Part shown: positions 2 through 13,936 of the stretch, piece after piece
Position numbering within the stretch: position 1 is the stretch's first letter
Layout of the letters: each line of letters opens with the position of its first letter
NCBI GenBank assembly: GCA_013360215.1
Contig: JABWCP010000012.1
Location: 62,001 to 83,529, forward strand
Length of the DNA: 21,529 nucleotides
Direction of reading: 5' to 3'
From: a bacterium
GTDB taxonomy: Bacteria > CLD3 > SB21
Notes under the pieces: generated by a model
Databases searched by the model: none
What the model was told of the DNA's origin: nothing
Seen by the model: the letters and a program-made list of their open reading frames with translations, nothing else
Position numbers and translations under genes: made by a program

Positions 2-1093
2 CCGGTCAGTATGGATGTGCCGGCTTTCCCCTATCCCTCTTATCCCAAATCGGATAAAGGTAAAGTGGATAACCCCGGTCATAAATATCCCTTTGCGCAC
101 GAAACGATCACCACCGGCATACGCGAAGCGACACTCACCGGTAAACCTTATCCGATCAAAGGTTGGTTTGTGTACGCAACCAATCTGCTGCATGCTTTGC
201 CTAATGAGGAAGAAACGATCAAGGCCATTCAGAATCTCGATCTGATGGTCGTGATTGATGTTATTCCCAGTGAAATCGCCGGCTGGGCCGATGTGATATT
301 ACCGGAGTCGGTGTATCTTGAGCGGCACGACGATCTTAATGTCGAATGGTTCCGCGATCCGTTTGTGGCACTGCGCCAACCCGTCGTATCTGCCCCGCAT
401 GAGCAGAAGCCCAACTGGTGGATGGCCAAGCGTCTTGCCGAAAAACTCGGGCTCGGTCATTATTATCCGTGGACTCATATCGAATCGTATTTTGAAACGC
501 GGCTTCGGCAGGCGGGATTGAGTTATGAAACACTGAAAAAAAACGGAATCCTCCTCGGCGAAAAAAAACCGGTTTATTTCGATGAAGGCGTACCGGCCGA
601 ATTTCCCACGCCATCAGGAAAAATAGAATTTTATTCATCCCAACTCGCAGAAGCCGGTTTTGAACCGGTACCCAAATATGTAGCCCCGCCTCAACCGCCA
701 CCGGGTTCATTTCGGCTTTTGTTTGGTCGTGCGCCGGTGCACTCGTTTAGCCGTACGCATACCAACCCCGTACTGATGGATATGATGAATGAAAACGAAC
801 TGTGGGTCAATGCGGACATGGCGTTACGGTACGGTTTAAAATCCGGCGATTATGTTCGTCTCAAAAATCAGGACGGTGTGGTCAGTACTAAAATCAAAAT
901 CAAAGCGACGGAACGCATTCGCACCGACTGCGTGTATATGGTGCACGGATTTGGGCATAACGCCAAAGCGCTCAAGCGCGCTTTCGGACGTGGTGCCAGC
1001 GATGCACAGCTTATCACACGCTACGATACCGATCCCTTGATGGGCGGCACCGGTATGAATAATAATTTTGTCACTCTGGAAATGGAGGCTTAG
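2..1093 (+). CDS. Molybdopterin oxidoreductase catalytic subunit, polysulfide/thiosulfate reductase (PsrA/PhsA) type; C-terminal part only, 5' end lies outside the window
   Basis: Frame is open from the window edge (CCG GTC AGT ATG). DMSO-reductase-family motifs: PYPIKGWFVYATN, DVIPSEIAGWADVILPESVYLER, F-PTPSGKIEFYS. C-terminal molybdopterin-binding domain HSFSRT...NELWVN...G-VYMVHGFG. Followed by PsrB- and PsrC-like genes. Substrate (polysulfide, thiosulfate or other) cannot be determined from this fragment. Confidence 0.85.
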   Translation, partial: PVSMDVPAFPYPSYPKSDKGKVDNPGHKYPFAHETITTGIREATLTGKPYPIKGWFVYATNLLHALPNEEETIKAIQNLDLMVVIDVIPSEIAGWADVILPESVYLERHDDLNVEWFRDPFVALRQPVVSAPHEQKPNWWMAKRLAEKLGLGHYYPWTHIESYFETRLRQAGLSYETLKKNGILLGEKKPVYFDEGVPAEFPTPSGKIEFYSSQLAEAGFEPVPKYVAPPQPPPGSFRLLFGRAPVHSFSRTHTNPVLMDMMNENELWVNADMALRYGLKSGDYVRLKNQDGVVSTKIKIKATERIRTDCVYMVHGFGHNAKALKRAFGRGASDAQLITRYDTDPLMGGTGMNNNFVTLEMEA

Positions 1094-1095
1094 CC

Positions 1096-1635
1096 ATGGC
1101 GCGTCTCGCAATGGTCATAGATACCCGAAAATGCGTCGGATGTATGGATTGTGTCGTGGCCTGCAAAACTGAAAATCAGGTTCCCGAAGGATACAATCGC
1201 GACTGGATCACGACCGAAGCCAAAGGAAAGTTTCCCGACGTGCGTCTCGAAATTCGATCCGAACGTTGTAATCACTGTTCCAATCCACCGTGTGTGACAT
1301 GCTGCCCTACCGGTGCGAGTCATGTGCATGACTATGGCGGCGTCGTGCTGGTCGATCATGATGTATGTATCGGCTGCAAAGCATGCGTCGCATCGTGTCC
1401 GTATGATGCGCGTTTTGTTCATCCCGAAGGTTATGTGGACAAATGTACATTCTGCATTCATCGCGTGGAAAAAGGACTTGAGCCGGCTTGCGTGTCCGTT
1501 TGCCCTACGCATTGTATGTACTTTGGCGATCTGGATGACCCTAATAGTAAAGTTTCTCAACTTCTGCAGAAACGCGGTTACCATACGAATTTACCGGAAG
1601 CCGGTACGCAACCGAATATTTTTTATCTCACGTGA
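1096..1635 (+). CDS. 4Fe-4S electron-transfer subunit (PsrB/NrfC/DmsB family)
   Basis: Four Cys groups: CVGCMDCVVAC, CNHCSNPPCVTCCP, CIGCKACVASCP, CTFC...PACVSVCP. GGAGG RBS upstream; starts 2 nt after the previous stop. Confidence 0.95.
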   Translation: MARLAMVIDTRKCVGCMDCVVACKTENQVPEGYNRDWITTEAKGKFPDVRLEIRSERCNHCSNPPCVTCCPTGASHVHDYGGVVLVDHDVCIGCKACVASCPYDARFVHPEGYVDKCTFCIHRVEKGLEPACVSVCPTHCMYFGDLDDPNSKVSQLLQKRGYHTNLPEAGTQPNIFYLT

Positions 1636-1642
1636 GGACGCT

Positions 1643-2584
1643 ATGAACGAATTGACACATACGCGCATGAATCCGATGATTGATCCCGCGCTGCACATTT
1701 GGGGCTGGGAAATCCCCGTGTATCTTTTTCTTGGCGGATTGGTGGCAGGGTTTATGATTTTGTCCGGTTATTTTACGCTTAAAGGCCATCATAAACATGA
1801 TCACTTCTCTTCTTTTTATTTACCGCATGTGAGTTTGGCCTTACTGAGCCTCGGTATGTTTTCCTTATTTCTCGATCTTGAGCACAAGCCTTATGTATGG
1901 CGTCTTTATACGACATTTGAAATCACTTCGCCGATGTCCTGGGGATCTTGGATTTTACTGTTAGTCTATCCTTCGTTACTTCTCAATACGTTGGTGCGCA
2001 TTCCGGAGGCTTTTAGTAACCGCATTCATCTGTTTGATAAATTTTCGGAACGCATCCATGCGCATCCTTATCTCATCAAAAACATCGGTGTTCTCAATAT
2101 GATCGTGGGTGCGATATTGGGGATATACACGGGTGTTCTCTTAAGCGGGCTGGCGGCACGGCCGTTGTGGAATAGCTCTATGCTATGGATACTTTTTCTC
2201 ACGTCCGGAATATCCGCCGCGGCAGCTTTCGTTCACCTCGTCACGACAGATTCTGTCGAACGAGAGATTTCAGCGAAAGCGGATAATGCATTTTTGATTT
2301 TTGAATTGTTTGTAATCACGCTGTTCATCGTAGGTATGTTGAGTTCCGCACAAGCGCAACAAACCGCAGCAAGGCTGATATTAAACGGTCCTTACGCTGC
2401 GGTATTCTGGGTATTTGTGGTCGGTTGCGGCATCATCATTCCTTTGATCATCCAACTGCTGGCGGTCAATCATAAAATACAACATACGCCGATAGCGCCG
2501 ATCATGGTGATGCTGGGCGGGCTCATTTTACGATTTGTTATCGTATATGCCGGGCAGGCTTCACACTGGACTATTGTACACTAA
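1643..2584 (+). CDS. NrfD/PsrC-family quinol-interacting membrane anchor subunit (313 aa)
   Basis: ATG at 1643 after GAGGAC, just past the PsrB stop; preferred over the ORF-track start at 1313. Motifs WGWEIPVYLFLGG, DLEH..., SPMSWGSWIL, YTGVLL, RPLWNS and G-LILRFVIVYAGQ; about 8 hydrophobic segments. Confidence 0.92.
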   Translation: MNELTHTRMNPMIDPALHIWGWEIPVYLFLGGLVAGFMILSGYFTLKGHHKHDHFSSFYLPHVSLALLSLGMFSLFLDLEHKPYVWRLYTTFEITSPMSWGSWILLLVYPSLLLNTLVRIPEAFSNRIHLFDKFSERIHAHPYLIKNIGVLNMIVGAILGIYTGVLLSGLAARPLWNSSMLWILFLTSGISAAAAFVHLVTTDSVEREISAKADNAFLIFELFVITLFIVGMLSSAQAQQTAARLILNGPYAAVFWVFVVGCGIIIPLIIQLLAVNHKIQHTPIAPIMVMLGGLILRFVIVYAGQASHWTIVH

Positions 2585-2601: not shown

Positions 2602-3159
2602 ATGGCATCTTCAGAAGAACATTTTAATGAACATCGCGCCATGAAGCTACCGCAGCCGTACTGGAATCCATATCTGTCCGGCATCGGCCTCGGGTTGGTT
2701 TTGCTAGCGTCGTATCTGATCATGGGGCGTGGACTTGGCGCATCGGGTGCGTTTACTACGACGACGGCCGTTACTGTGAATGCCGTAGCGCCGGAGTATG
2801 CACACCAAAATACGTTTTACAGCGAATACCTCGGTGACGGCACACGCAGTCCGCTCAAAGATTGGTTAGTTTTTGAAGTGCTCGGCGTTTTTGTCGGCGG
2901 ATTGGTTTCCGGTCTTCTGGCCGGACGTATCAAAAAATCCGTCGAAAAAGGCCCGCGCATTTCCGTCCGATCACGCCTCTTGTTTGCTTTTGCAGGCGGC
3001 ATGCTGATGGGCATTGGTGCAAAACTTGCTCGGGGTTGCACGAGCGGGCAAGCCTTGACCGGCGGCGCCGTGCTTAATCTCGGAAGCTGGGCATTTATGC
3101 TGATGGTATTCGCCGGCGCTTACGGACTGGCTTATTTTTTGAGGAGGCAATGGACATGA
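2602..3159 (+). CDS. YeeE/YedE-family sulfur-compound transporter, half-size subunit 1
   Basis: YWNPY-SG-GLG, GLGASG, DW-VF-V-G and GG-LMG-GA-LARGCTSGQAL-G motifs. GGAG RBS. An alternative start exists at 2641. Confidence 0.88.
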   Translation: MASSEEHFNEHRAMKLPQPYWNPYLSGIGLGLVLLASYLIMGRGLGASGAFTTTTAVTVNAVAPEYAHQNTFYSEYLGDGTRSPLKDWLVFEVLGVFVGGLVSGLLAGRIKKSVEKGPRISVRSRLLFAFAGGMLMGIGAKLARGCTSGQALTGGAVLNLGSWAFMLMVFAGAYGLAYFLRRQWT

Positions 3160-3755
3160 ACGCACCTTTTTTCAAATATGGATTATTCGGTGACGAAGCG
3201 AGCCTGATCGTGGCTTTTATCATCGGTATCGGGTTTGGTTTTTTTCTTGAACGCGCCGGATTTGGCAGCGGTGTAAAACTCGCTGCACAGTTTTATTTTT
3301 ATGATATGAGCGTACTCAAAGTCATGTTTAGTGCGATCGTGACGGCCATGCTGGGCGTATATTGGTTCTCATGGTTTGGCTTGCTTGATCTCGATCTGAT
3401 TTATATCAATCCCACATTTCTTCTTCCGCAAATCGTCGGAGGCCTTCTGCTTGGGTTCGGATTTGTGATCGGCGGATATTGTCCGGGCACTTCGGTCGTG
3501 GCGTGTTCGACAGGACGAATGGACGCGATGGTTTATGTGGCCGGTATTTTCGGAGGAATTTTTACGTTCGGATTTATTTTTCCTTACGTCGAATCGTTTT
3601 ATACAGCGACGCCGATGGGTGCGATCACTCTGCCGCAATGGCTCAATCTGCCGTACGGCACCGTCGTATTTCTTGTCGTTGTCATGGCGATCGGCGCATT
3701 TGCCGCCGCCGAGTGGGGCGAGAGAAAAATGGCCTCCCAAGGAGGTGCATCGTGA
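3156..3755 (+). CDS. YeeE/YedE-family sulfur-compound transporter, half-size subunit 2
   Basis: ATGA overlap with the upstream stop and GAGGAGG 8 nt upstream favour start 3156 over 3150. Motifs GIGFGFFLER-GF, D--VLKVMF-AI and GGLL-GFGF--GGYCPGT. Confidence 0.88.
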   Translation: MNAPFFKYGLFGDEASLIVAFIIGIGFGFFLERAGFGSGVKLAAQFYFYDMSVLKVMFSAIVTAMLGVYWFSWFGLLDLDLIYINPTFLLPQIVGGLLLGFGFVIGGYCPGTSVVACSTGRMDAMVYVAGIFGGIFTFGFIFPYVESFYTATPMGAITLPQWLNLPYGTVVFLVVVMAIGAFAAAEWGERKMASQGGAS

Positions 3756-4405
3756 AAAACCGATGGCGTGATCTCACGTTAACGCAGAAGCTCGGCGTCG
3801 TCGCGATGCTGCTCGGTTTATTGGCATTGATCGGCGGTACGCCGCAACGCGGTTCTTTTTATACGATAGACAGCAAAGCCATGCTGATGGACGTCGCTAA
3901 AGAGACCGATCACATCGCCGTGGAAACATTGGCCGACTGGATCATTCAAGGCCGCTCGGATTACAGACTGCTGGATATCCGCGACGCCAAAGCGTTCGAG
4001 ACGTACCACATTCCTTCAGCCGAATCCGTGCCGCTCGCCGAACTCCATCAGGCCGAATTGCGCCGTAACGAAAAAATTATTTTCTACTCCGATGGCGGTA
4101 TTCATGCTTCGCAGGCGTGGTTTGTACTCAAAGCCCGCGGCTACAATGGAGTATATATGCTGCGGGGTGGACTGGAAGAATGGCAGGATCGTATTTTGTA
4201 TCCGCACAAGCCATCAAAAAACGATACGGAATCCCTGAGGCAGTTTGAAAAGTCCGCGGCGGTTGCCAAATTTTTTGGCGGCGAAGCACAAGGCGAACAA
4301 TCTACCGCGGCCGTCAAATCAGTGGCGACACCGATGCCCAAAGCCCCTGCGGGCGCTAAAGCCGTCGCACCTAAAACCGGAAAAAAGAAAAAAGAAGGAT
4401 GTTGA
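3752..4405 (+). CDS. Membrane-anchored rhodanese-like protein (217 aa) with Ser at the active-site position and a C-terminal KKKKEGC tail
   Basis: GTGA overlap with the upstream stop and a GGAGG RBS. N-terminal hydrophobic helix. Rhodanese signatures LLDIR...F---HIPSA, KIIFYSDGGIHAS and GY--V--L-GGLEEW. Ala/Pro/Lys-rich tail. Confidence 0.85.
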   Translation: MKNRWRDLTLTQKLGVVAMLLGLLALIGGTPQRGSFYTIDSKAMLMDVAKETDHIAVETLADWIIQGRSDYRLLDIRDAKAFETYHIPSAESVPLAELHQAELRRNEKIIFYSDGGIHASQAWFVLKARGYNGVYMLRGGLEEWQDRILYPHKPSKNDTESLRQFEKSAAVAKFFGGEAQGEQSTAAVKSVATPMPKAPAGAKAVAPKTGKKKKEGC

Positions 4406-4516
4406 TCAAATTTATATGACTTTTCGCATGGCTAAATCCCCTATGGCATAGGATATTTAGAAAAACATGCGGGCTGACGATATGCCCATAGATTGATACA
4501 TATGATTTTGTAATGC

Positions 4517-4548
4517 AAAGACGTTCCTCAAAGAACGTCTTTTCTTTT
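4517..4548 (+). terminator. Probable intrinsic terminator of the psr-yeeE-rhodanese operon
   Basis: AAAGACGTTC-ctcaaa-GAACGTCTTT, a perfect 10-bp inverted repeat running into TTTTCTTTT, about 110 nt after the last gene. Confidence 0.6.
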
Positions 4549-4671
4549 GGATACCGTGAAAACCGTTTGCAACTTCTGTTTTTGTTTGTGAAATTTAACG
4601 CGCATGTATCTTCATATTTTTTACCTACGCTGAACGGCCGCCAGGTCGTCTTCAGGTTTCGGAGAATCATC

Positions 4672-6699
4672 ATGAGAAGCCTTTCCAACTTTATTTTGAT
4701 TATGGCCTTGAGTTTACCCCTTTACGCTCAAGACACGTTGATCTTAAAGAATATTTCTTACCAACCCGGTCAGAAATTATTTGTCGGACTTGAAAACGAA
4801 GATCTTGGAGCGCCGTTGCGTGTCCAATTGCTCAACGCCGACGGGAAACCTGTAAGTAACCGCATCGTCCTATTTGAGATCATCGAACGACCTTCAAAAT
4901 CTAAAGGCGAAAAACTCGGGCAAGCTGAAGCGGTAACCAACGCCGAAGGTATTGCCGAAACAAGTTTTCGTCTCGGCGATCATGCGGGTGATTATATCAT
5001 CATTGCCCGGACGGACGGCATGACCGGCGATACACCGCATATCATCGTTCGCGCCCAACGCACAATGTGGTGGATGTTTTTGATTTTCGGATTGATCGGC
5101 GGCTTGGGCATATTTTTATACGGGATGAATTTGGGTTCCGGCGGTCTACAAAAAGTAGCCGGCGATCGTTTACGTACTATTCTCGGCGCATTGACCAGTA
5201 ACCGTTTTTTGGGATTGCTTGTCGGTATTGCCGTGACCGCCATAGTGCAAAGCAGTTCGGCCACATCGGTGATGGTCGTCGGATTGGTTAGCTCCGCTTT
5301 GATGACGTTACAACAAGCCATCGGCGTACTCATGGGCGCCCATATCGGCACTACGATCACCGTACAATTGATAGCCTTCAATGTTTCCGATTATTCTTTG
5401 TTGCTGGTTGGCGCCGGATTTCTTATGACGATTGCAACGAAACGAAAATTTTACATCTATATGGGTGAAATCATCCTCGGATTCGGTTTTATATTTTTCG
5501 GAATGGCCGTGATGTCGCAGGCCATTAATCCGTTAAAATCCATGCCGGCTTTCATCGCGTGGCTGATCGAATTTGGAAACTCTCCGATTCTCGGTATTCT
5601 CGCCTCCACTGTGTTTACGGCCATTATTCAATCCAGCGGCGCGACGATCGGTTTGTGCGTCGTCATGGCCGGAGAAGGGCTGCTTTCTTTACAATCCGCC
5701 ATGCCGCTTGTATTTGGCGCCAATATCGGTACATGCGCAACGGCTTTGCTTTCTACCATCGGTGCGACAACCGACGGCAAACGTACGGCCTTGGCCCATA
5801 CGGCTTTCTCCGTGATCGGCGTAATTTTATTCACGCCGTTCCTCACCCCGTTCGAAGCGTTCATCCAGAGTATCACCTCCTGGATGGGTACCGAAGCCGT
5901 GGCGCGTCAGATCGCCAATGGGCACATGATATTCAATATCATGACGGCGATGATCCTGATCGGATTTGTACCGCTGATGACTCAATTGATCACCAAAATT
6001 ATTCCCGAAAAAGCCGAAGGGGATGCGTTCAAACCGAAATACCTTAACAACGCCTATTTAGAAACTCCGGACATTGCTTTGCAGAATGCCCAGCGTGAAG
6101 AAGTGCGGTTGGTCACTATCGTACGTGCCATGTATGACAATACCATGAATCTTTTTTCCTCAGAAAACGAGGAAAAAGTGGCCAAAGTGCGCGAACAGTT
6201 GAAACAAGTGAATTTCCTCGAGGGTGAAATCCGGCGTTATCTGACGCGTTTATCGCAAAAGAGTATCAGTTTGACGCAGAGCCGGCGACTTATGCGGCTT
6301 CTGCTCACCATTGATGATTTGCGGCATATGGCCGAACGCCTTGGTGACAGCATCGCCAATCTGGCCGAACGTTATGCGGATAATCACGTGACGTTTTCTC
6401 CGGAAGGGCTGGAAGAGCTAAAACGTTTCTACGGTATGATACATGAACGGCTTGACGCGGTACTCACGGCACTTGAAAAAGAAGACGCCGTCATGGCCGA
6501 ACATATCATTAAAAACAAACATACGGTTTCCGAAGAGGAAGTGCGGCTGCGCCAGCTGCATATGACACGCCTTCAGGGTGGCAACGAACAACTCTTTGTC
6601 AGCAGTCAATACCACTTTGATTTGCTCACGGCATTGCAGCGAATTCATATTTTCTCCGTCAAGATGGCGCATGAAATAGTGGAACAACACAATCTTTGA
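4672..6699 (+). CDS. Na+/phosphate cotransporter (NptA/SLC34-like) with N-terminal signal peptide and Ig-like domain, and C-terminal PhoU-like region (675 aa)
   Basis: ATG at 4672 after GGAG. Repeated motifs TAIVQSSSATSV...GAHIGTT and TAIIQSSGAT...GANIGTC; GGLGIFLYGM and RQIANGHMIFN; helical PhoU-like C-terminus (DLRHMAE, FSPEGLEEL). Confidence 0.9.
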   Translation: MRSLSNFILIMALSLPLYAQDTLILKNISYQPGQKLFVGLENEDLGAPLRVQLLNADGKPVSNRIVLFEIIERPSKSKGEKLGQAEAVTNAEGIAETSFRLGDHAGDYIIIARTDGMTGDTPHIIVRAQRTMWWMFLIFGLIGGLGIFLYGMNLGSGGLQKVAGDRLRTILGALTSNRFLGLLVGIAVTAIVQSSSATSVMVVGLVSSALMTLQQAIGVLMGAHIGTTITVQLIAFNVSDYSLLLVGAGFLMTIATKRKFYIYMGEIILGFGFIFFGMAVMSQAINPLKSMPAFIAWLIEFGNSPILGILASTVFTAIIQSSGATIGLCVVMAGEGLLSLQSAMPLVFGANIGTCATALLSTIGATTDGKRTALAHTAFSVIGVILFTPFLTPFEAFIQSITSWMGTEAVARQIANGHMIFNIMTAMILIGFVPLMTQLITKIIPEKAEGDAFKPKYLNNAYLETPDIALQNAQREEVRLVTIVRAMYDNTMNLFSSENEEKVAKVREQLKQVNFLEGEIRRYLTRLSQKSISLTQSRRLMRLLLTIDDLRHMAERLGDSIANLAERYADNHVTFSPEGLEELKRFYGMIHERLDAVLTALEKEDAVMAEHIIKNKHTVSEEEVRLRQLHMTRLQGGNEQLFVSSQYHFDLLTALQRIHIFSVKMAHEIVEQHNL

Positions 6700-6875: not shown

Positions 6876-8654
6876 CTAAGTAAAGCTTTCCATTCCAAGA
6901 TCCATGGCTTCTTCGATCGCAAAAGTCGGCGGTGGAAGTTGGCGTATCATGGTTTCTTGCAGCATCAGCGCTTTGATTTGATTGGAAACGCGCGACGACT
7001 GGTGATCACTGAGCGCATACAGGAAAAGCTCTAACGCACGGCTAGCATTCTTTTTGATTTTTACTACGTCTTTATCGTTGATCGTCATGAGTTCCTGGAT
7101 TTCGGCATTGCCCGCAAAATTGGCTAATATTCGATCCGGATTGCTGACCATAGCTTGTGCCTTTTTATATACGATCTTGGCTACTTCGAGGTATTGTCCC
7201 AATAATTGATCATCTTCCGTACGCCCCAAAAGATCAACACCGACTTTGAGGGAATACATACGATCTAGAAATTCACGTATCAATGCGCCGCGAATCAACG
7301 ATCCGTGTTGCGGAGCGATCATCACCGGCCCCGGATCAAGCTTACGTATCTGATCAATGGCAAATTGAATCGCTTTATTGGCCGGCATGTAGAGTTCGTG
7401 GAATGCGCGCATTCCGTCCCAATGGCTTTCATCGGCCCACAAACCGTAATTGTCCGTACCGGTAAGTCCTCCGAATAAATCACCGGAGAAAAGAATGCGG
7501 GATTCGATATCGTACACCATTACGGCACCGCGAAAATGACAATACGGCGTAGGAATAAATTGTAACGTATGCCCGGTCGGAAGATTGGTCTGCCAGTTGG
7601 TCAATTTATCGGTAAGAATCAAACGTTCTTTATTAATACCAAAGCTGGACACGAGCCGCCACGTGTCTTCCGATGTAAGGCAAATAGCTTTAGGGTTGGC
7701 CGACTTGAGGAAAAACGTATTGGAAGCTACATCGGGATCCTGATGATTGAGGCTGTATAAATTGACCTTGGACACATCACCGATCACTTCGCCGATTTTT
7801 CCGGAAATCGTCGTATAGTCAATCGTCGGTCCGGGATCAACCAAAAAATTGACCTTATTGTTATACACGCGCAAAAAAGGATTAATCTGAAGAATACGCG
7901 ATTCTTTTCTGTCGCCGACAAAATAAATATCTTCGGCAATCGCTATAGGTTTAGAAAAATCCTCACTTTTCATCGCGTTTCCTTCCTTCGTTGAGTGCAC
8001 CGATACCGGCATTTTGTTTTCGCTTTCGGTTAATTCAGAGGGGCGCCGTGCGAGATAATATGAACCGCTGCTCCACTGCAGCATCGTCTCCAGCGCTTCC
8101 GAGTCTTTTAATTCACCGCATACGATCGTTTCGCATACACCGCGATTAAACTCGATCGAGCCGACACCATGATCGCTCTGGATAGTTAAAATTCCGTGAA
8201 CCCCTTCTTTTTCCGCCGACGCGATGAGTTCTTCGATTTTTCCGAGCACGAGCGAACCGCTTCGCAGAATACCGCTGGACCGTTGGGCGTCCACAAATCG
8301 AAACAATGCCTGAATTTTCAAAAACAACAAATTCAGATTGATCGGTTTTGGTAAAAAATCAATGGCTCCCATTTGAATGGCTTTGGCCGTCAATGACGGA
8401 TCTTTGTCGCCCGACATCAGCAGAAACGGTATGGACGCAAGACGCGGTTGTCTGCGAACGGCTTCGATAAAACCGAATCCGTCCAGTTCCGGCATCATAA
8501 TGTCCGATATGATCAAATCCGGTGATTGACCGGCCAGGATTGTAAGTGCCGCTTTGCCGTTTAACGCTGTCACTACCGAATAACCGGATTGCCCCAAAGC
8601 CAAACTTAAAGCGTCTACGGAAGTTCTTTCATCGTCCACAATCAATATCGTCAT
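6876..8654 (-). CDS. Multidomain signalling protein: receiver (REC) + DUF4388/PatA-N-like domain + ODP-type di-iron metallo-beta-lactamase-fold domain + helical tail
   Basis: REC: ILIVDDE, DLIISDIMMPELDG, LMSG, DFLPKP. DUF4388-like: GSL...GILTI...GSIEFNRG...EAL--MLQW--G-Y. ODP/FprA-like core: LVDPG, NHQDPDV, PYCHFRGA, ILFSGDLFGG, FHELYMP, IAPQHG. No flavodoxin or DNA-binding domain seen. Confidence 0.85.
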   Translation of the reverse strand: MTILIVDDERTSVDALSLALGQSGYSVVTALNGKAALTILAGQSPDLIISDIMMPELDGFGFIEAVRRQPRLASIPFLLMSGDKDPSLTAKAIQMGAIDFLPKPINLNLLFLKIQALFRFVDAQRSSGILRSGSLVLGKIEELIASAEKEGVHGILTIQSDHGVGSIEFNRGVCETIVCGELKDSEALETMLQWSSGSYYLARRPSELTESENKMPVSVHSTKEGNAMKSEDFSKPIAIAEDIYFVGDRKESRILQINPFLRVYNNKVNFLVDPGPTIDYTTISGKIGEVIGDVSKVNLYSLNHQDPDVASNTFFLKSANPKAICLTSEDTWRLVSSFGINKERLILTDKLTNWQTNLPTGHTLQFIPTPYCHFRGAVMVYDIESRILFSGDLFGGLTGTDNYGLWADESHWDGMRAFHELYMPANKAIQFAIDQIRKLDPGPVMIAPQHGSLIRGALIREFLDRMYSLKVGVDLLGRTEDDQLLGQYLEVAKIVYKKAQAMVSNPDRILANFAGNAEIQELMTINDKDVVKIKKNASRALELFLYALSDHQSSRVSNQIKALMLQETMIRQLPPPTFAIEEAMDLGMESFT

Positions 8655-8683: not shown

Positions 8684-11600
8684 TTAGGACTGCTCACCGG
8701 AACGTAACGGTGCGAGTACATCGTTCAACGTTTGAAGTATTTTTTCAGCGCGGTATGGTTTCATCAAAAAGGCCTGCACTTTGAATCCGTTTTTCTGAAT
8801 GGATTTTTCATTTTCCGGAAGACCGCTCATGGCGATGATGGGGATATCTTCACGAATACTGCGCAACATGCGAATAAACGCATGACCGTCCATGTGTGGC
8901 ATGCTTATATCGGTTATCACGGCACGAATGGATGCCATTTGGGCGGCGAATACCGTCATCGCTTTTCCGCCGTCCTCGGCTTCGACTATTTGGTATCCGT
9001 GATGCGTCAGGATCGTCCCCAATATTTTGCGTATGGCCGGCTCATCATCTACGATCAGGATCAATTCACCACGACCCCATAACGATTCCGGAACACGAGA
9101 TTCAACCGATTCCGTGTGGAAACCGGCGCTGGCGGGGATGTAAATTTTAAACTGTGTGCCTTTACCGACCTCACTATACACGCTCACAAAGCCGCCATGC
9201 CCTTTGATAATCGCCGCAACCGTGGATAGTCCCAAACCTGTACCGTGTTCGAGGTCCTTGGTTGTAAAAAACGGATCAAAGATATGATCTATGATATCCG
9301 AAGGAATCCCCAGTCCTGTATCCGTAACTGTAAACAGAACGTACGGGCCGGGTTTAGCCTGATGTTCCTTGTAGACATACGCCTCATCAAAAATTACATT
9401 TTCGACGTGGATCGTCAGGTCACCTCCGGAAGGCATGGCATCGCGCGCATTGACACACAGATTGAGAAATACTTGATGAAGCTGCGTGCTATCGGCCGTG
9501 ATCGGATACAGACCTTTGGCTACGTTGCAGGCAATTCTTATGTTTTTAGGAAACGTTGAAACAAGGATACGCTCAATTTCCTCAATCGTTTTTTTGGCAT
9601 CCACGGCATGATGCGCCCCTTCTGCACCGCGCGAAAACATAAGGAGTTTACGCATCAGATCGGCAGCCCGTTCTATATTAGATTCCAGCATGACGATCAG
9701 ACGTTGACTCGTATCATCCGATAATTTGGATTTGAACATTTGAACAGCCATCAAAATCGGCGATAAAATATTATTAAGATCATGCGCGATACCGCTGGCC
9801 ATACGGCCGATGCTTTCCATGCGCTGCGCTCTAAAATACTGTTTCTCAAGTCGTTTACGTTCAGTAACGTCGGTCTCGATATACAAAAATGATTTGACCG
9901 CGCTGTCCGCATCCCGCACAGGACTCTTGCGGCATTCGACGATGACACTTCTTCCGTCCCGCGTATAGTGCTCGATCTCACCGCTCCACGCCTCGTTGCC
10001 GCTGAATAGTGAACGTACCACAGCATCCGTCGCGCGGGTATGCCCGAGAACTTCCGTCGCTTGATGGCCGATGACATTGGTTTTTTCCCAGCCATACAAC
10101 GTTTCGCATTGACTGTTCCAATACACTATCCGCCCATCCGGATCGGTCATAAAAATCGCATCCCGCGCATTATCGAGGATCATCGCTTGCTCTTGGATGA
10201 TCTCGTTGGCTTTTTTATGAAATGTGATATCCCGACCGATCACGACCAATCCCAGCCGTGTTCCGTTCTCTTGCAACAGAGGAATCTTGGTCGTATCATA
10301 ATGCAATAAATCACCGCCGGGTTTTTCGATAATTTCTATGGTTTGATACCGTTGCCCTGTCTGCCAAGCCAACTCATCCGTACCGATGCACCCCTCGTAC
10401 AGCGAACGCAAAGCGGGAAAAGCTTCAGCTAGCTGCCGGTCCGTTTTCCCGTACCAAGGATACGCCGTCAATTCAAAAAGTTTGAGCACGGCGGGATTGG
10501 CGATCAACCATCGCCCGTTCCCGTCTTTGAATAATACGGCATCCGGTATCGCTTCGACTAATGTTTCAAATTCACGCAACGTTTCGCTCAATTTGACTTC
10601 GGCCTGTTCGCGTTCCGACGATAGGCGATGTTTGAGCAGCGCCAATTCGATTTCCCGCGATACGCTGTCGAGAAAATTCAGTTCTTCCTCCTGCCATTGG
10701 CGCGGACGGATCATATCATTGACAACCAAAAGGAAAAAACCATCCTCCCGAAATGAGAACGGATACCAAAGCAAACTCTGTACTTTCATGACACGATGCA
10801 ATATTTCGGCAGATCCTTCCTCGACAAAACATGCGTGCGGTGCATCAACCGTACTCGTGATGCAGGTTCGTGTGCTATGCAGCCGGCTAATACTGGACGC
10901 AAATACGGACGAGGGATACACCTCCTGAGGCGGGGCAAAATCGGAAAAATCCGGGCGAATCCATTTGGCAATAGAAACGGCTTCGCCGGCCGCCATGCGT
11001 ATATCAAATAACAGCGCGCGTTCTATATCAATCGTTTCACCGCAAATGGTCGTCATTTCCCGCAACAACGTATCGGCTGTACCGTCCGAATTCATAATCG
11101 ATGTCGCCATACGATTGAGTGCACGGGCGTAGCGTAGTTGCTCACGGATATGGTTTTCATATTTACGACGGCTTCGGTTATCGCGTCCGATACATACGAT
11201 GACCGGCGTTCCCGATGACACGGCCTTACTTGTGCGCACATCAAAGGGAATCGCTTCACCGTTTAGGTGAATAAAATCCATTTCGCGCGACGCGGCGCCG
11301 TTTTCATGGCCTGTGCCACCGGTGAGGTACGATATCGCGTCATAATCCGCATTACCGGGTAAAATCGAACTGATCATTTTCCCGGCCAATGCGCCTTGCG
11401 CATATCCGAGATTTTGTTCTACGGCCGGATTAGCATAGATGATGTAGCCGTTGTTCTCAAACAACAAAACCATATCCTGGGATGTCTCGGCGAGCGTGCG
11501 GTATTTTTGCTCACTGTGAAGCAACGCTTCCTCGGCGTTATGCCGTTCGGTGACATCTTTAAAATTAACGACGATCGCCTGAACTTCCGGCGCCTGAAGT

Positions 11601-13936
11601 AAATTAGTAAACGTACTTTCGATCCATTTCCATGACCCGTCTTTATGCTTGAAGCGATACATCGCCCGTGCGTCAATATCCGGATTTTCGATCACGGATA
11701 AGATAAGCTGTACGACACGCTCGACATCATCCGGATGGGTCATTGCGGCGGGATCCAGATCGGACAACTCCGACATTTCGTATCCGAACATGCGCGCCGA
11801 AGAAGGACTGATGTATTGAAATTTTCCTTCGACATTGATCAATACCACACCGTCCGGTGCACGTTCGATGAGGGCCTGAAAATGTTTCTCTACGCGACGG
11901 CGCTCCGAAATATCCCTTACTATACCCTGAATACGTCCGTCATCAAGCATTTTGGCGCTGATTTCAACTTCGACATGTGTCCCGTCTTTGCGGACTAAAC
12001 GCCGATGCGATAAAATTGATTGACCCTTTTCCAATTGTCTGATTTTGAGCGGTTGGCGGATTAATTCTTCCGCATCCAACAAACCGTAAAAAGGTTTCTT
12101 CAACAATTCGTTTACAGTATATCCCATTAAACGGCAACCGGCGGGATTGACATCTTCGATTTGTCCGTCACGGGTAGCTACAAAAATACCGTCCGCGGCC
12201 TGATCAATCAACGTACGATACCGCTTTTCACTGGCACGCAACGAATCTTCCGCCGTTTGACGTACCATCTGTGATAACAAACGATCTATCGTCGCCGACA
12301 TATGACTCGCTAAAGTCGTGAGATATTGAAGGGCGGATTCATCCGGCACACGCACCCCTTCATCATCATAGGTTCCCATACCGATGGATGCTAAGCGCCC
12401 TTCGGAAAGATGAACCGGTATATTTACGATCGTACGCACCCCGGTAGATTGTACGATTTTTTTATTGGTTCGTACATCCTCCGCCGCATCGGGAATAACC
12501 ACCGCACCCGCTCCCCGAGCCACTGCACTAAGCATCGCATCATTTTTGATATCAAGGCGTTTAGGTGCAAACGGTCTTGACATGCCGGCCTCGGCCAATA
12601 CTTCTGCTTCAGAGCGATCATTCGAAAAAACGTACACCCATAATCTCTGATATCCCACCAGGCGTTGCACTTCGTTTAATGCTGCCTGAGCCGCTTCATC
12701 GAAACCCGCGACACGCTCCAGCTGACGCGCTAATCGCAAAAGTGATTCCGCCTGTGATTCTTTTTGCCTGAGCGCCAGCTCGGCCAGTTTACGTTCGGTA
12801 ATATCGCGATTGCTTCCCCGAATACCTCGAAAAACGCCGGTGGCGTCGGAAATAGGCTGACAGACATGGCCAATCCATTTGATAGTGCCGTCTTTACAGA
12901 CAATACGAAAATCCAGATTACCCGGTAAACGCCGCTGCTGAATATCTTGCTGGTGAGCTAAAAAAGCCGCGCGGTCTTCGGCATATACGATGCGTTGCAG
13001 AAAATCACGATCCGTCGTAAAAGAAACCGGCGAATATCCCGTGATACGCTCGCACGACGGCGAACTGTAAATGTAGGATCCGTCCGTATCCAGCCAAAAC
13101 TCCCAATCAAATGTATTATCCGCGATGATCTGATATTTGATTTCGTTTTGCTTTAATTGATTTTGTGCTTGCCGCGTTTCGTTTTCCGAACGAATTTTTC
13201 CGCTGATATCTTTCCAAATGCCGATAAAATGCGTTATCTCTCCGTTTTCGTCACGGACCGGAGATATCGTATGCTCGACGGGTATGATGCTGCCGTCTTT
13301 TCGGCGATTATATTGAATATTTCGAAATACGCTCCCCGATAAAATTTTTTCCCACATTCCGGTATAAAAAGCCTGCTCATGGTAACCGGATTTTAATATT
13401 CGCGGATTCTTTCCCAGTACTTCATCACGCCCGTATCCGGAATTTTTTTCAAACCCACCATTCACATAGAGAATATTACCATCTTTATCGGTTATGATAA
13501 CAGCGTCATCCGTTGACTCCACCGCTCTTAAGAATAAATCCGATGCAATGGAATTATCATATTGCTTCGGCCAGTGTGATGTCGGCGATAGAAACGATAG
13601 AACATTTTTTTTAGTAAAAGGAAGAGGGATAACTTCATCCGACTTCAGCACACCCTCTTTCACGAGCCGTTTTCCTTGGGCCGCAGGCAAAGCAAACCCA
13701 ACACGCAAATTCGCCGCGTGCATCATTTTCTTTTTTAAGACAAGCGCAGAAGCTATTCCACGGTAGGTTGTAGTTAGGATGGCCGATGAAGGTCGGATTT
13801 GTGTGACTTTACGCAGCGCATTCCGATCGGTTACAGAGACAACCTCCCGTTGCGTGAGGGCGGCCAAAGCGGACGCCTGCGTCGTGCTGCCCAATAATAA
13901 CACTATTTGCGTATGTGATTTACCCGCTTTATTCAC
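8684..13936 (-). CDS. Soluble hybrid sensor histidine kinase with about 7 PAS and 2 GAF domains, HisKA, HATPase and C-terminal REC
   Basis: Repeated PAS/PAC ends (KDIS, RDITERK, RDISERR, KDVTERH, RDIT, TDVTERK). H-box GIAHDLNNIL, N-box QVFLNLCVNARDAM, G-boxes DTGLGI / FDPFFTTK / GTGLGL. REC ILIVDDE...ITDISMPHMDG...FLMKPY. No transmembrane helix seen. The GTG start is uncertain. Confidence 0.93.
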   Translation of the reverse strand: MNKAGKSHTQIVLLLGSTTQASALAALTQREVVSVTDRNALRKVTQIRPSSAILTTTYRGIASALVLKKKMMHAANLRVGFALPAAQGKRLVKEGVLKSDEVIPLPFTKKNVLSFLSPTSHWPKQYDNSIASDLFLRAVESTDDAVIITDKDGNILYVNGGFEKNSGYGRDEVLGKNPRILKSGYHEQAFYTGMWEKILSGSVFRNIQYNRRKDGSIIPVEHTISPVRDENGEITHFIGIWKDISGKIRSENETRQAQNQLKQNEIKYQIIADNTFDWEFWLDTDGSYIYSSPSCERITGYSPVSFTTDRDFLQRIVYAEDRAAFLAHQQDIQQRRLPGNLDFRIVCKDGTIKWIGHVCQPISDATGVFRGIRGSNRDITERKLAELALRQKESQAESLLRLARQLERVAGFDEAAQAALNEVQRLVGYQRLWVYVFSNDRSEAEVLAEAGMSRPFAPKRLDIKNDAMLSAVARGAGAVVIPDAAEDVRTNKKIVQSTGVRTIVNIPVHLSEGRLASIGMGTYDDEGVRVPDESALQYLTTLASHMSATIDRLLSQMVRQTAEDSLRASEKRYRTLIDQAADGIFVATRDGQIEDVNPAGCRLMGYTVNELLKKPFYGLLDAEELIRQPLKIRQLEKGQSILSHRRLVRKDGTHVEVEISAKMLDDGRIQGIVRDISERRRVEKHFQALIERAPDGVVLINVEGKFQYISPSSARMFGYEMSELSDLDPAAMTHPDDVERVVQLILSVIENPDIDARAMYRFKHKDGSWKWIESTFTNLLQAPEVQAIVVNFKDVTERHNAEEALLHSEQKYRTLAETSQDMVLLFENNGYIIYANPAVEQNLGYAQGALAGKMISSILPGNADYDAISYLTGGTGHENGAASREMDFIHLNGEAIPFDVRTSKAVSSGTPVIVCIGRDNRSRRKYENHIREQLRYARALNRMATSIMNSDGTADTLLREMTTICGETIDIERALLFDIRMAAGEAVSIAKWIRPDFSDFAPPQEVYPSSVFASSISRLHSTRTCITSTVDAPHACFVEEGSAEILHRVMKVQSLLWYPFSFREDGFFLLVVNDMIRPRQWQEEELNFLDSVSREIELALLKHRLSSEREQAEVKLSETLREFETLVEAIPDAVLFKDGNGRWLIANPAVLKLFELTAYPWYGKTDRQLAEAFPALRSLYEGCIGTDELAWQTGQRYQTIEIIEKPGGDLLHYDTTKIPLLQENGTRLGLVVIGRDITFHKKANEIIQEQAMILDNARDAIFMTDPDGRIVYWNSQCETLYGWEKTNVIGHQATEVLGHTRATDAVVRSLFSGNEAWSGEIEHYTRDGRSVIVECRKSPVRDADSAVKSFLYIETDVTERKRLEKQYFRAQRMESIGRMASGIAHDLNNILSPILMAVQMFKSKLSDDTSQRLIVMLESNIERAADLMRKLLMFSRGAEGAHHAVDAKKTIEEIERILVSTFPKNIRIACNVAKGLYPITADSTQLHQVFLNLCVNARDAMPSGGDLTIHVENVIFDEAYVYKEHQAKPGPYVLFTVTDTGLGIPSDIIDHIFDPFFTTKDLEHGTGLGLSTVAAIIKGHGGFVSVYSEVGKGTQFKIYIPASAGFHTESVESRVPESLWGRGELILIVDDEPAIRKILGTILTHHGYQIVEAEDGGKAMTVFAAQMASIRAVITDISMPHMDGHAFIRMLRSIREDIPIIAMSGLPENEKSIQKNGFKVQAFLMKPYRAEKILQTLNDVLAPLRSGEQS

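Follow-up and report, generated by a model that had tools for sequence, protein, structure and literature searches.

What does a rhodanese-fold protein do once the catalytic cysteine of its active-site loop has been replaced and the only cysteine left in it is its very last residue? The question is raised by a gene at positions 3752–4405 (+) of a 21,529-nt stretch of bacterial DNA (GTDB lineage CLD3; SB21; assembly GCA_013360215.1, contig JABWCP010000012.1, positions 62,001–83,529). This stretch is called the window here, and coordinates without a locus name refer to it. In translation, the product of the gene, hereafter the tail-Cys protein, has 217 residues, ends in ...KTGKKKKEGC directly before a TGA stop and contains one Cys, at the final position. 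The gene starts with GTG, has GGAGG 6–10 nt on the 5' side of this codon, and shares its start with the stop of the upstream gene in a GTGA overlap. It follows genes for a molybdoenzyme of the polysulfide reductase/thiosulfate reductase type (Psr/Phs) and for a channel of the YeeE family (Table 1). A first, sequence-only reading of the window had expected loss of the loop Cys to go together with a conserved terminal Cys and with yeeE-type neighbors; the loop Ser and a terminal (E/D/R)GC are indeed conserved together, beside yeeE-type genes. We lean, if only slightly, toward a widespread and unnamed family in which, as the sequences suggest, the working thiol of the rhodanese fold now sits on a terminal arm, in the service of a YeeE-type channel. 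The family is found in Ignavibacteria-type Bacteroidota, Gemmatimonadota, an Opitutaceae bacterium and candidate phyla, and counts 213 representatives at 50% clustering (E<1e-30).

The fold itself is not in question. Rhodanese (residues 62–146, E 6e-17) is the sole Pfam domain in the 217-aa protein, and an AlphaFold2 (AF2) model from a 79-row alignment, with a mean predicted local distance difference test (pLDDT) score of 84, displays a helix (residues 10–27), a rhodanese core (41–150) and an extra helix (159–174). Foldseek matched the model to the single-domain rhodaneses 3nhv, YgaP and Alr3790, and gave a probability of 1.00 to many rhodaneses. Pfam, AF2 and Foldseek thus all identify a rhodanese homology domain (PF00581). 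In databases, members of the family are called only "rhodanese-like domain-containing protein" or "hypothetical", and the corresponding Rhodanese-domain clusters of the ESM Atlas, named only "hypothetical protein", offer no functional lead.

The first helix, the single transmembrane (TM) segment, is preceded by a basic N-terminus (4 K/R per 13 residues), and positive-inside counts place the N-terminus inside and the domain outside. This supports the earlier proposal that a basic N-terminus followed by one TM helix leaves the domain facing outward. Ahead of the TM helix, a motif L-[TS]-L-N-x-K-L is conserved in the cytoplasmic N-terminus (window 3752–3790; alignment positions 8–14), with N11 present in 107 of 121 sequences; its conservation argues for a retained signal anchor rather than a cleaved signal peptide.

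These 121 sequences, the query and the best 120 of 474 matches, served as the set of close homologs in what follows. Codon 113 of the gene is TCC (4088–4090) and encodes Ser113. A search of PDB sequences with the family profile aligned the loop "YSeGGiHsa" column for column with "YCGGGFRSA" of rhodanese 6mxv, which places Ser113 at the position of the catalytic Cys; the Cys that comes first in the CxxGxR[ST]-type loop of active rhodaneses is therefore absent from the 217-aa protein. Position 113 is Ser in 120 of the close homologs and Ala in the remaining one, and Y112, G115, G116, H118, Q121 and W123 are invariant in all of them. The 6mxv alignment and the homologs together bear out that Ser stands in the place of the catalytic Cys, and with Ser this common, a read error or private mutation in the loop is ruled out. 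For a wider view, a profile search of 1.84 billion cluster representatives returned 213 matches with E<1e-30, the best 150 of which were examined. At the loop position, these carry Ser (115), Ala (12), Gly (12), Thr (3), Cys (3) or Asp (1), and four were not aligned there. One mostly fused sub-clade has a Cys one position before the canonical site (I-L-C-S-x-D-G...) and keeps the terminal KKKKEGC (L090, L103 and L104; proteins P0303–P0324, P0137, P0159, P0164 and P0188).

At the other end of the protein, conservation takes a different form. The AF2 model has pLDDT values below 50 over residues 184–214, which, together with the translation, confirms that the only Cys is the last residue and stands at the end of an arm of about 40 residues that is predicted to be disordered. 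All 121 close homologs end in KKKKEGC, 120 of them keep P194, and 111 are single-Cys proteins. Among the best 150 representatives, the arm, measured from the FFGG motif to the end, has a median length of 40 aa (range 16–89 aa); Ala and Pro make up 33–50% of it. A Cys is the last residue in 121 of these 150, preceded by Gly in 103 of the 121, and the 29 without a terminal Cys are mostly fragments, multi-rhodanese giants and apparent frameshifts in the run of lysine codons. Since the loop varies in this set while the tail Cys is kept, the terminal Cys is the more conserved of the two sites. For comparison, 24 of the 3264 long open reading frames (ORFs) in the same genome end in Cys (0.74%), and only one of these 24, that at 3752–4405, has a polybasic run before it.

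The residues that precede the terminal Cys differ between subfamilies. Besides KKKKEGC/KKKREGC, we found RRRRGC in a Gemmatimonadota subfamily (e.g., Longimicrobium and Gemmatimonadales records), xTRDGC/IRDGC, and KSGC; paralogs with 30–38% identity have C-termini reading ...TRDGC, ...IRDGC or ...KSGC. The poly-Lys patch, to which the sequence-only reading had assigned the binding of anionic polysulfide or thiosulfate, is thus not universal, other subfamilies having RRRRGC or xRDGC in its place. A few members (L065:965–1609; P0185, P0210) end in ...KEKRGLLI or ...EEGRLL... and not in KKKKEGC; these ends look like a frameshift in the A-rich lysine codons, probably from assembly or sequencing slips.

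Cys217 is the genuine C-terminus of the protein. In 11 distinct genome loci, the stop after the Cys is TGA in eight, TAG in two and TAA in one, and the sequence beyond it is unconserved and soon runs into further stops. The 79 metagenome loci with a complete 3' end have 54 TGA, 14 TAA and 11 TAG stops. In the genome that holds the window, rated 100% complete, ARAGORN found no tRNA for selenocysteine (Sec), a SelA-family search gave an unconvincing best match of 24 bits, and a SelD search gave nothing above the cut-off. With stops that vary and Sec machinery not found, read-through of the TGA to a Cys-Sec end was rejected. The findings that could have overturned the earlier reading were thus sought and not obtained: the terminal Cys is conserved, a loop TGC is absent from close homologs, and the stop is real.

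We then asked which protein the tail-Cys protein works with. The sequence-only reading had placed a Psr/Phs molybdoenzyme and YeeE immediately upstream, and both are there; what it had taken for a single YeeE gene is, however, two half-size genes. Half 1 has four TM segments and a Cys146 in RGCTSGQ that is invariant in 51/51 sequences; half 2 has five hydrophobic segments and a Cys111 in GGYCPGT, invariant in 47/47. Adjacent half-size Sulf_transp proteins with one conserved Cys each are the pattern of the split PmpAB/YedE1E2 channels. The order half 1, half 2, tail-Cys protein, here called a triad, was found in 15/15 genome loci, and half 2 lies immediately 5' of the tail-Cys gene in every one of the 80 metagenome loci whose contig has room for it. 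All four Sulf_transp matches in the window's own genome form two split pairs, each followed by a tail-Cys protein.

The molybdoenzyme is a less constant companion. psrABC lies upstream in most, not all, of the 15 genome loci, and in the metagenome loci wherever at least ~5 kb of upstream sequence exists. The second triad of the same genome lies in a paralogous operon (contig C32, L030:9458–12064, minus strand). This operon begins with P0292, a secreted rhodanese that has two domains and keeps its catalytic loop (TYCHVGQQ) intact, followed by half 1, half 2 and a tail-Cys paralog that ends in ...EEEKIRDGC. All three triads of the xRDGC type (L030, L029 and L005) are preceded by such a secreted tandem rhodanese, not by Psr/Phs, and the KKKKEGC-type triad of L025 stands alone among unrelated genes. 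With these four triads lacking it, Psr/Phs was rejected as an obligate partner.

The tie to the channel can be closer than adjacency. Of 54 triads that are complete and non-redundant, four have half 2 and the rhodanese joined in a single ORF (421–427 aa), and a search for the longer form yielded 34 fused proteins of 400–431 aa, all ending in ...EGC and all with Sulf_transp/DUF6691 and Rhodanese domains. These natural fusions make binding likely beforehand, and we therefore read the rhodanese as an accessory subunit of the channel. ESMFold2 predictions of half 1, half 2 and the tail-Cys protein, made with our own alignments, gave a score of 0.43 against 0.00 for the best control, with at least 82% contact agreement between runs and a partner pLDDT of at least 67. 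This mark, reached by 116 of 157 solved complexes and by 2 of 215 mismatched pairs, was graded as weak support; only 18 of the 157 solved complexes scored 0.60 or less, as did both mismatches that passed.

The predicted topologies of the three proteins are compatible with each other. Positive-inside counts suggest that half 1 has both termini inside, a cytoplasmic K/R-rich loop (residues 106–125) and a Cys146 loop that enters from the periplasmic side, and that half 2 has its N-terminus outside, five TM segments, its C-terminus inside and a Cys111 loop that enters from the cytoplasmic side. In the passages of PMC7449682 on the solved StYeeE of Spirochaeta thermophila, the N-terminus is outside and the C-terminus inside, a positively charged indentation of the periplasmic face holds C293, and C91 and C22 are at the cytoplasmic face; the orientation predicted for the channel halves agrees with this. 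In the fusions, the C-terminus of half 2 and the N-terminus of the rhodanese are necessarily on the same side of the membrane. The rhodanese domain and its arm, the PsrA exported by the twin-arginine translocation (Tat) route and the secreted tandem rhodanese would then all share the periplasm.

To the best explanation of this anatomy we give slightly better than even chances: the tail-Cys protein would be a periplasmic swinging-arm carrier of sulfane sulfur, an accessory subunit of the split YeeE/PmpAB-type channel that feeds the channel's outer Cys. A TM anchor with a cytoplasmic N-terminus would hold the rhodanese fold in the periplasm, and the Ala/Pro arm of ~40 residues would end in a polybasic collar and the terminal Cys. 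Cys217 would take up sulfane sulfur as persulfide or polysulfide, from polysulfide or thiosulfate directly or through a neighboring enzyme, which would be the Tat-exported Psr/Phs molybdoenzyme in the window; in the paralogous operon, a secreted tandem rhodanese would take its place. During loading, the anionic sulfur species may be bound by the conserved cradle that lacks the Cys (Y-S-[ED]-G-G-I-H-x-x-Q-A-W). The arm would then swing the sulfur into the positive outer vestibule and hand it over to Cys146 of half 1, which corresponds to StYeeE C293. The anionic tip (Glu, C-terminal carboxylate and persulfide) would enter the vestibule, while the basic collar may stay at its rim or on acidic lipids. 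From there, the sulfur would pass to Cys111 of half 2, which corresponds to StYeeE C91, and on to an acceptor in the cytoplasm. Published passages on related systems describe import of zero-valent sulfur by the split YedE1E2, for which conserved Cys are needed (PMC10812762), and propose a transfer from SoxYZ to the YeeE-like SoxT (PMC11582611). The sequence-only reading had already proposed a swinging-arm carrier, between YeeE and the Mo site: the channel stands as the partner, but the Mo site does not as a general one, and because triads occur without nearby Psr/Phs, a YeeE–Mo-site shuttle can be at most half general.

Several points weigh against such a carrier. The persulfidation of Cys217 is something that we infer, and the reason for an importer in a respiratory Psr/Phs operon is unexplained. 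A cytoplasmic acceptor has no candidate, PF01206 (the TusA/YeeD family) not having been found anywhere in the window's own genome. The cradle has decayed (to DDGTQ, DDSLE or YADDGT, for example) in certain clades whose members retain the tail, so that loading in cis at the cradle is not universal and the cradle is not essential everywhere. The complex score is weak and silent on the position of the tail, whose tip is not placed at the channel. Two of the data sets also favor the tail by construction. The metagenome loci were retrieved with KKKKEGC and loop-motif patterns, which biases their tail and loop counts, and they were therefore used for synteny and stop codons only; the profile behind the 150-representative counts included tail columns, and matches whose alignment stopped short of the tail often still ended in Cys (e.g., P0181, P0183 and P0197).

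A more specific account goes further and treats the protein as a rhodanese with a relocated nucleophile, the thiol of the anion cradle being carried instead at the tip of a 40-residue Ala/Pro arm that would be inserted into the outer vestibule of the YeeE-family channel. The relocated thiol could be loaded at the conserved cradle or by a neighboring enzyme. We put this account forward tentatively, with the balance somewhat against it. The same anatomy, and the same obligatory linkage or fusion with the channel, would also suit a gate or redox element in which the polybasic Cys tip is a ball-and-chain plug or a resolving cysteine. It would block the outer Cys of the channel reversibly, enter a mixed disulfide with it or rid it of mis-formed persulfides and disulfides, so that the tail regulates import and does not carry the substrate. 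A cradle that certain clades can do without, beside a tail that does not vary, fits such a gate, as do the StYeeE cysteines, which passages of PMC7449682 describe as able to form disulfides in vitro. However, it is not obvious why a plug should have an arm of 40 residues, conserved in length and with (M/L)PK inside it, or why it should be recruited beside periplasmic sulfur enzymes in two operon types, and no regulator-like feature was seen; we consider a gate unlikely. We think it improbable, and more so than the gate, that the protein is a Sud-like supplier that presents sulfur from polysulfide or thiosulfate to the Mo site of PsrA/PhsA, the channel then moving a by-product such as sulfite or being unrelated. 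psrABC does precede the triad in the window and in the majority of those KKKKEGC-type loci whose contigs extend far enough, PsrA is Tat-exported so that both proteins would be periplasmic, and Sud of Wolinella (1qxn) is a weak sequence relative. Against this stand the triads without nearby Psr/Phs (L025 alone; L030, L029 and L005 behind a tandem rhodanese), the fusions, which involve a channel half and never a Psr subunit, and the absence of Sud's loop Cys from the 217-aa protein.

Sulfur may also not be the cargo. Selenium and arsenic metabolism likewise make use of YedE-family proteins and of Psr-like enzymes, and the tail-Cys protein might carry or bind another chalcogen or a metalloid (selenium, arsenic or tellurium). 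The two channel halves match the YedE/FdhT selenium-transporter models of NCBIfam, if weakly and far below the cut-offs, and PsrA falls under the PhsA cut-off, which leaves its substrate unfixed. But in the genome, rated 100% complete, searches found no tRNA-Sec, no SelD above cut-off and no convincing SelA, and the paralogous triad is paired with a rhodanese of the classical thiosulfate-sulfurtransferase type; we regard a non-sulfur cargo as very improbable. An artefact, whether an erroneous or private loop Ser or a TGA that encodes Sec (a GCU-type end) with the protein continuing beyond it, would draw on the TGA in the window being the commonest stop across loci. But 3 of the 11 genome loci and 25 of the 79 metagenome loci end with TAA or TAG, the read-through is unconserved, the loop Ser recurs in 120/121 homologs and Sec machinery was not found, which makes an artefact practically negligible. 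The periplasmic carrier that feeds the channel remains the reading that we prefer.

How does such a protein compare with known sulfur carriers? In Wolinella succinogenes, Sud is a soluble periplasmic rhodanese that feeds Psr and carries the sulfur on its loop Cys. The tail-Cys protein resembles Sud (1qxn; weak match, E 5e-4) in its rhodanese fold and perhaps in an outward, periplasmic topology, which is predicted, and a Psr-type link, psrABC being upstream in most, not all, loci. It differs from Sud in that the single sulfur-bearing loop Cys is absent, the family having Ser, Ala or Gly there, and in having a TM anchor, its only conserved Cys at the C-terminus and a tie to a channel and not to Psr. 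In the established sulfur carriers SoxY and DsrC, the Cys rides on an arm at the C-terminus; the SoxY end reads GGCGG, and the DsrC arm is short, with the Cys as its penultimate residue. Like SoxY-type carriers, the tail-Cys protein has a conserved Cys on a mobile C-terminal arm, and it would share with SoxY and DsrC the principle that this Cys carries sulfur between partners. The folds, however, are unrelated, and the tail-Cys protein places its Cys at the final position, behind a polybasic run, on an arm of ~40 residues. For the SoxY fold and its partner SoxZ, only the Rhodanese domain was found in the protein, and the operon holds no sox genes. Two further rhodanese-fold proteins bear on the loop: YgaP, a membrane rhodanese of E. 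coli, has the same fold but with the loop Cys in place, and PDB titles give its domain as cytoplasmic; Alr3790 likewise has the fold and, like the tail-Cys protein, lacks the loop Cys. Neither YgaP nor the inactive rhodanese homology domains have a conserved terminal-Cys arm.

Among channel partners, YeeD/TsuB is likewise a small single-Cys protein encoded beside its transporter, YeeE/TsuA, and passages of PMC11582611 and PMC13047784 describe such partners as needed for sulfur hand-over or propose them for it. YeeD/TsuB is, however, cytoplasmic, with a TusA fold (PF01206) and a CPxP-type Cys, whereas the tail-Cys protein has a rhodanese fold and is predicted to face the periplasm. The channel halves themselves resemble YedE1E2/PmpAB as described in parts of PMC11582611, with two half-size Sulf_transp proteins, first PmpA-like (C-half) and then PmpB-like (N-half). 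They differ in size (185 and 201 aa here versus ~130–140), in the fifth TM segment of half 2 and in their tail-Cys partner, none being reported for the proteobacterial pairs.

The sequence-only reading knew of no characterized example of its proposed carrier, which agrees with what we found. The gene cluster itself, however, is in print: passages of PMC9324843 describe a phsABC–pmpA/B–sulfurtransferase cluster in Ca. Electryonea clarkiae, Caldithrix abyssi and Ca. Lernaella stagnicola, with the same order of Mo enzyme ABC, two half-size YeeE genes and a "sulfurtransferase". In Ca. Lernaella stagnicola, it includes a Pmp–sulfurtransferase fusion like the half 2–rhodanese fusions found here. The paper states that neither the species transported nor the role of the sulfurtransferase is known, and these main-text passages mention neither the loss of the loop Cys nor the invariant terminal Cys. 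Nor did searches of one open-access full-text library for rhodaneses together with YeeE, YedE, PmpAB or polysulfide reductase turn up a description of the terminal-Cys feature.

Sulfur oxidizers, reducers and disproportionators alike raise the question of how sulfane sulfur gets across the cytoplasmic membrane. YeeE-family proteins are the leading candidates for this transport, and their substrates and periplasmic donors are still being sought. The tail-Cys family supplies a genetically hard-wired partner of such channels, predicted to be periplasmic and sometimes fused to the channel; having a single conserved and mutable thiol, it makes the relay hypothesis directly testable. If the account with a relocated nucleophile were true, the family would provide the first periplasmic, protein-tethered substrate donor for YeeE-family transporters, and direct evidence for a Cys-to-Cys trans-persulfidation relay across the membrane as opposed to conduction of free ions. 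Annotation pipelines, meanwhile, would score the family as sulfurtransferases despite the missing catalytic residue.

Table 1. Features of the tail-Cys gene and of the operon that it belongs to, with positions in the window.
Feature	Position	Strand	Product	Evidence
psrA/phsA, 3' part	2..1093	+	catalytic molybdopterin subunit	Pfam Molybdopterin, Molydop_binding
psrB/phsB	1096..1635	+	four-cluster ferredoxin subunit	Pfam Fer4_11, E 2.4e-25
psrC/phsC	1313..2584	+	NrfD-type membrane anchor	Pfam NrfD, E 6.4e-39, from residue 129
YeeE half 1	2602..3159	+	PmpA-like, C-terminal half of full-length YeeE, 185 aa	Pfam Sulf_transp, profile positions 174-309
YeeE half 2	3150..3755	+	PmpB-like, N-terminal half + extra TM, 201 aa	Pfam Sulf_transp, profile positions 10-159
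Tail-Cys rhodanese-like gene	3752..4405	+	217-aa TM-anchored protein, Cys-terminal	translation, homologs, AF2
Single TM helix (residues 10-27)	3779..3832	+		AF2 helix 10-27; hydropathy peak 14-30
Rhodanese-fold domain (residues 41-150)	3872..4201	+		AF2 model; Foldseek to single-domain rhodaneses
Active-site-loop equivalent IIFYSDGGIHASQAW (residues 109-123)	4076..4120	+		homolog conservation; alignment to solved rhodaneses
Ala/Pro-rich flexible arm (residues 178-210)	4283..4381	+		pLDDT, composition; (M/L)PK motif at 193-195
Terminal KKKKEGC, Cys217 last	4382..4402	+		121/121 homologs; stop TGA 4403-4405
Terminator-like hairpin, operon end	4517..4552	+		10-bp stem then TCTTTTGGAT, T run

The genes that lead up to the triad in one direction (L007) are, in order and with the triad included, a FadL/TodX-type gene, psrA/phsA, psrB, psrC, half 1, half 2 and the rhodanese-like gene. 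The full-length product of psrA/phsA (P0122) has 730 residues, with a start upstream of the window, and carries the twin-arginine signal MLSRRRFLK at its N-terminus. Its best NCBIfam family is PhsA, with 519 bits against a cut-off of 694; P0122 thus scores below the level for a thiosulfate-reductase PhsA, and the substrate of the upstream Psr/Phs-type enzyme is not fixed by this match. The longest ORF of psrC, from the GTG at 1313, overlaps psrB by ~320 nt, and because of this overlap we place the start later, probably near 1630–1700; in several loci, tblastn matches to psrC begin at query residue ~101–111.

Directly 5' of psrA and outside the window lies the gene for the FadL/TodX-type outer-membrane channel (L007:11611–12879, +), which has counterparts with 53–55% identity in L001 and L028. 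This channel may be an outer-membrane route for hydrophobic sulfur (S8) or polysulfide. On the other side of the triad, an ORF at 4513–6699 (+) encodes a Na/Pi-cotransporter of 728 aa, in which a PhoU domain forms the C-terminal part and a stretch at the N-terminus is weakly Ig-like (Big_1/MG4). Its annotated ATG falls within the terminator hairpin of the operon, and its true start is therefore probably further downstream; L001 and L003 have the gene downstream of their triads as well, with ~70% identity. It is followed at 6876–8654 (−) by a response regulator fused to an ODP-family domain of the metallo-beta-lactamase fold, which is adjoined by a 1750-aa hybrid histidine kinase (8684–13936, −) with about seven PAS domains, a GAF domain and a receiver.

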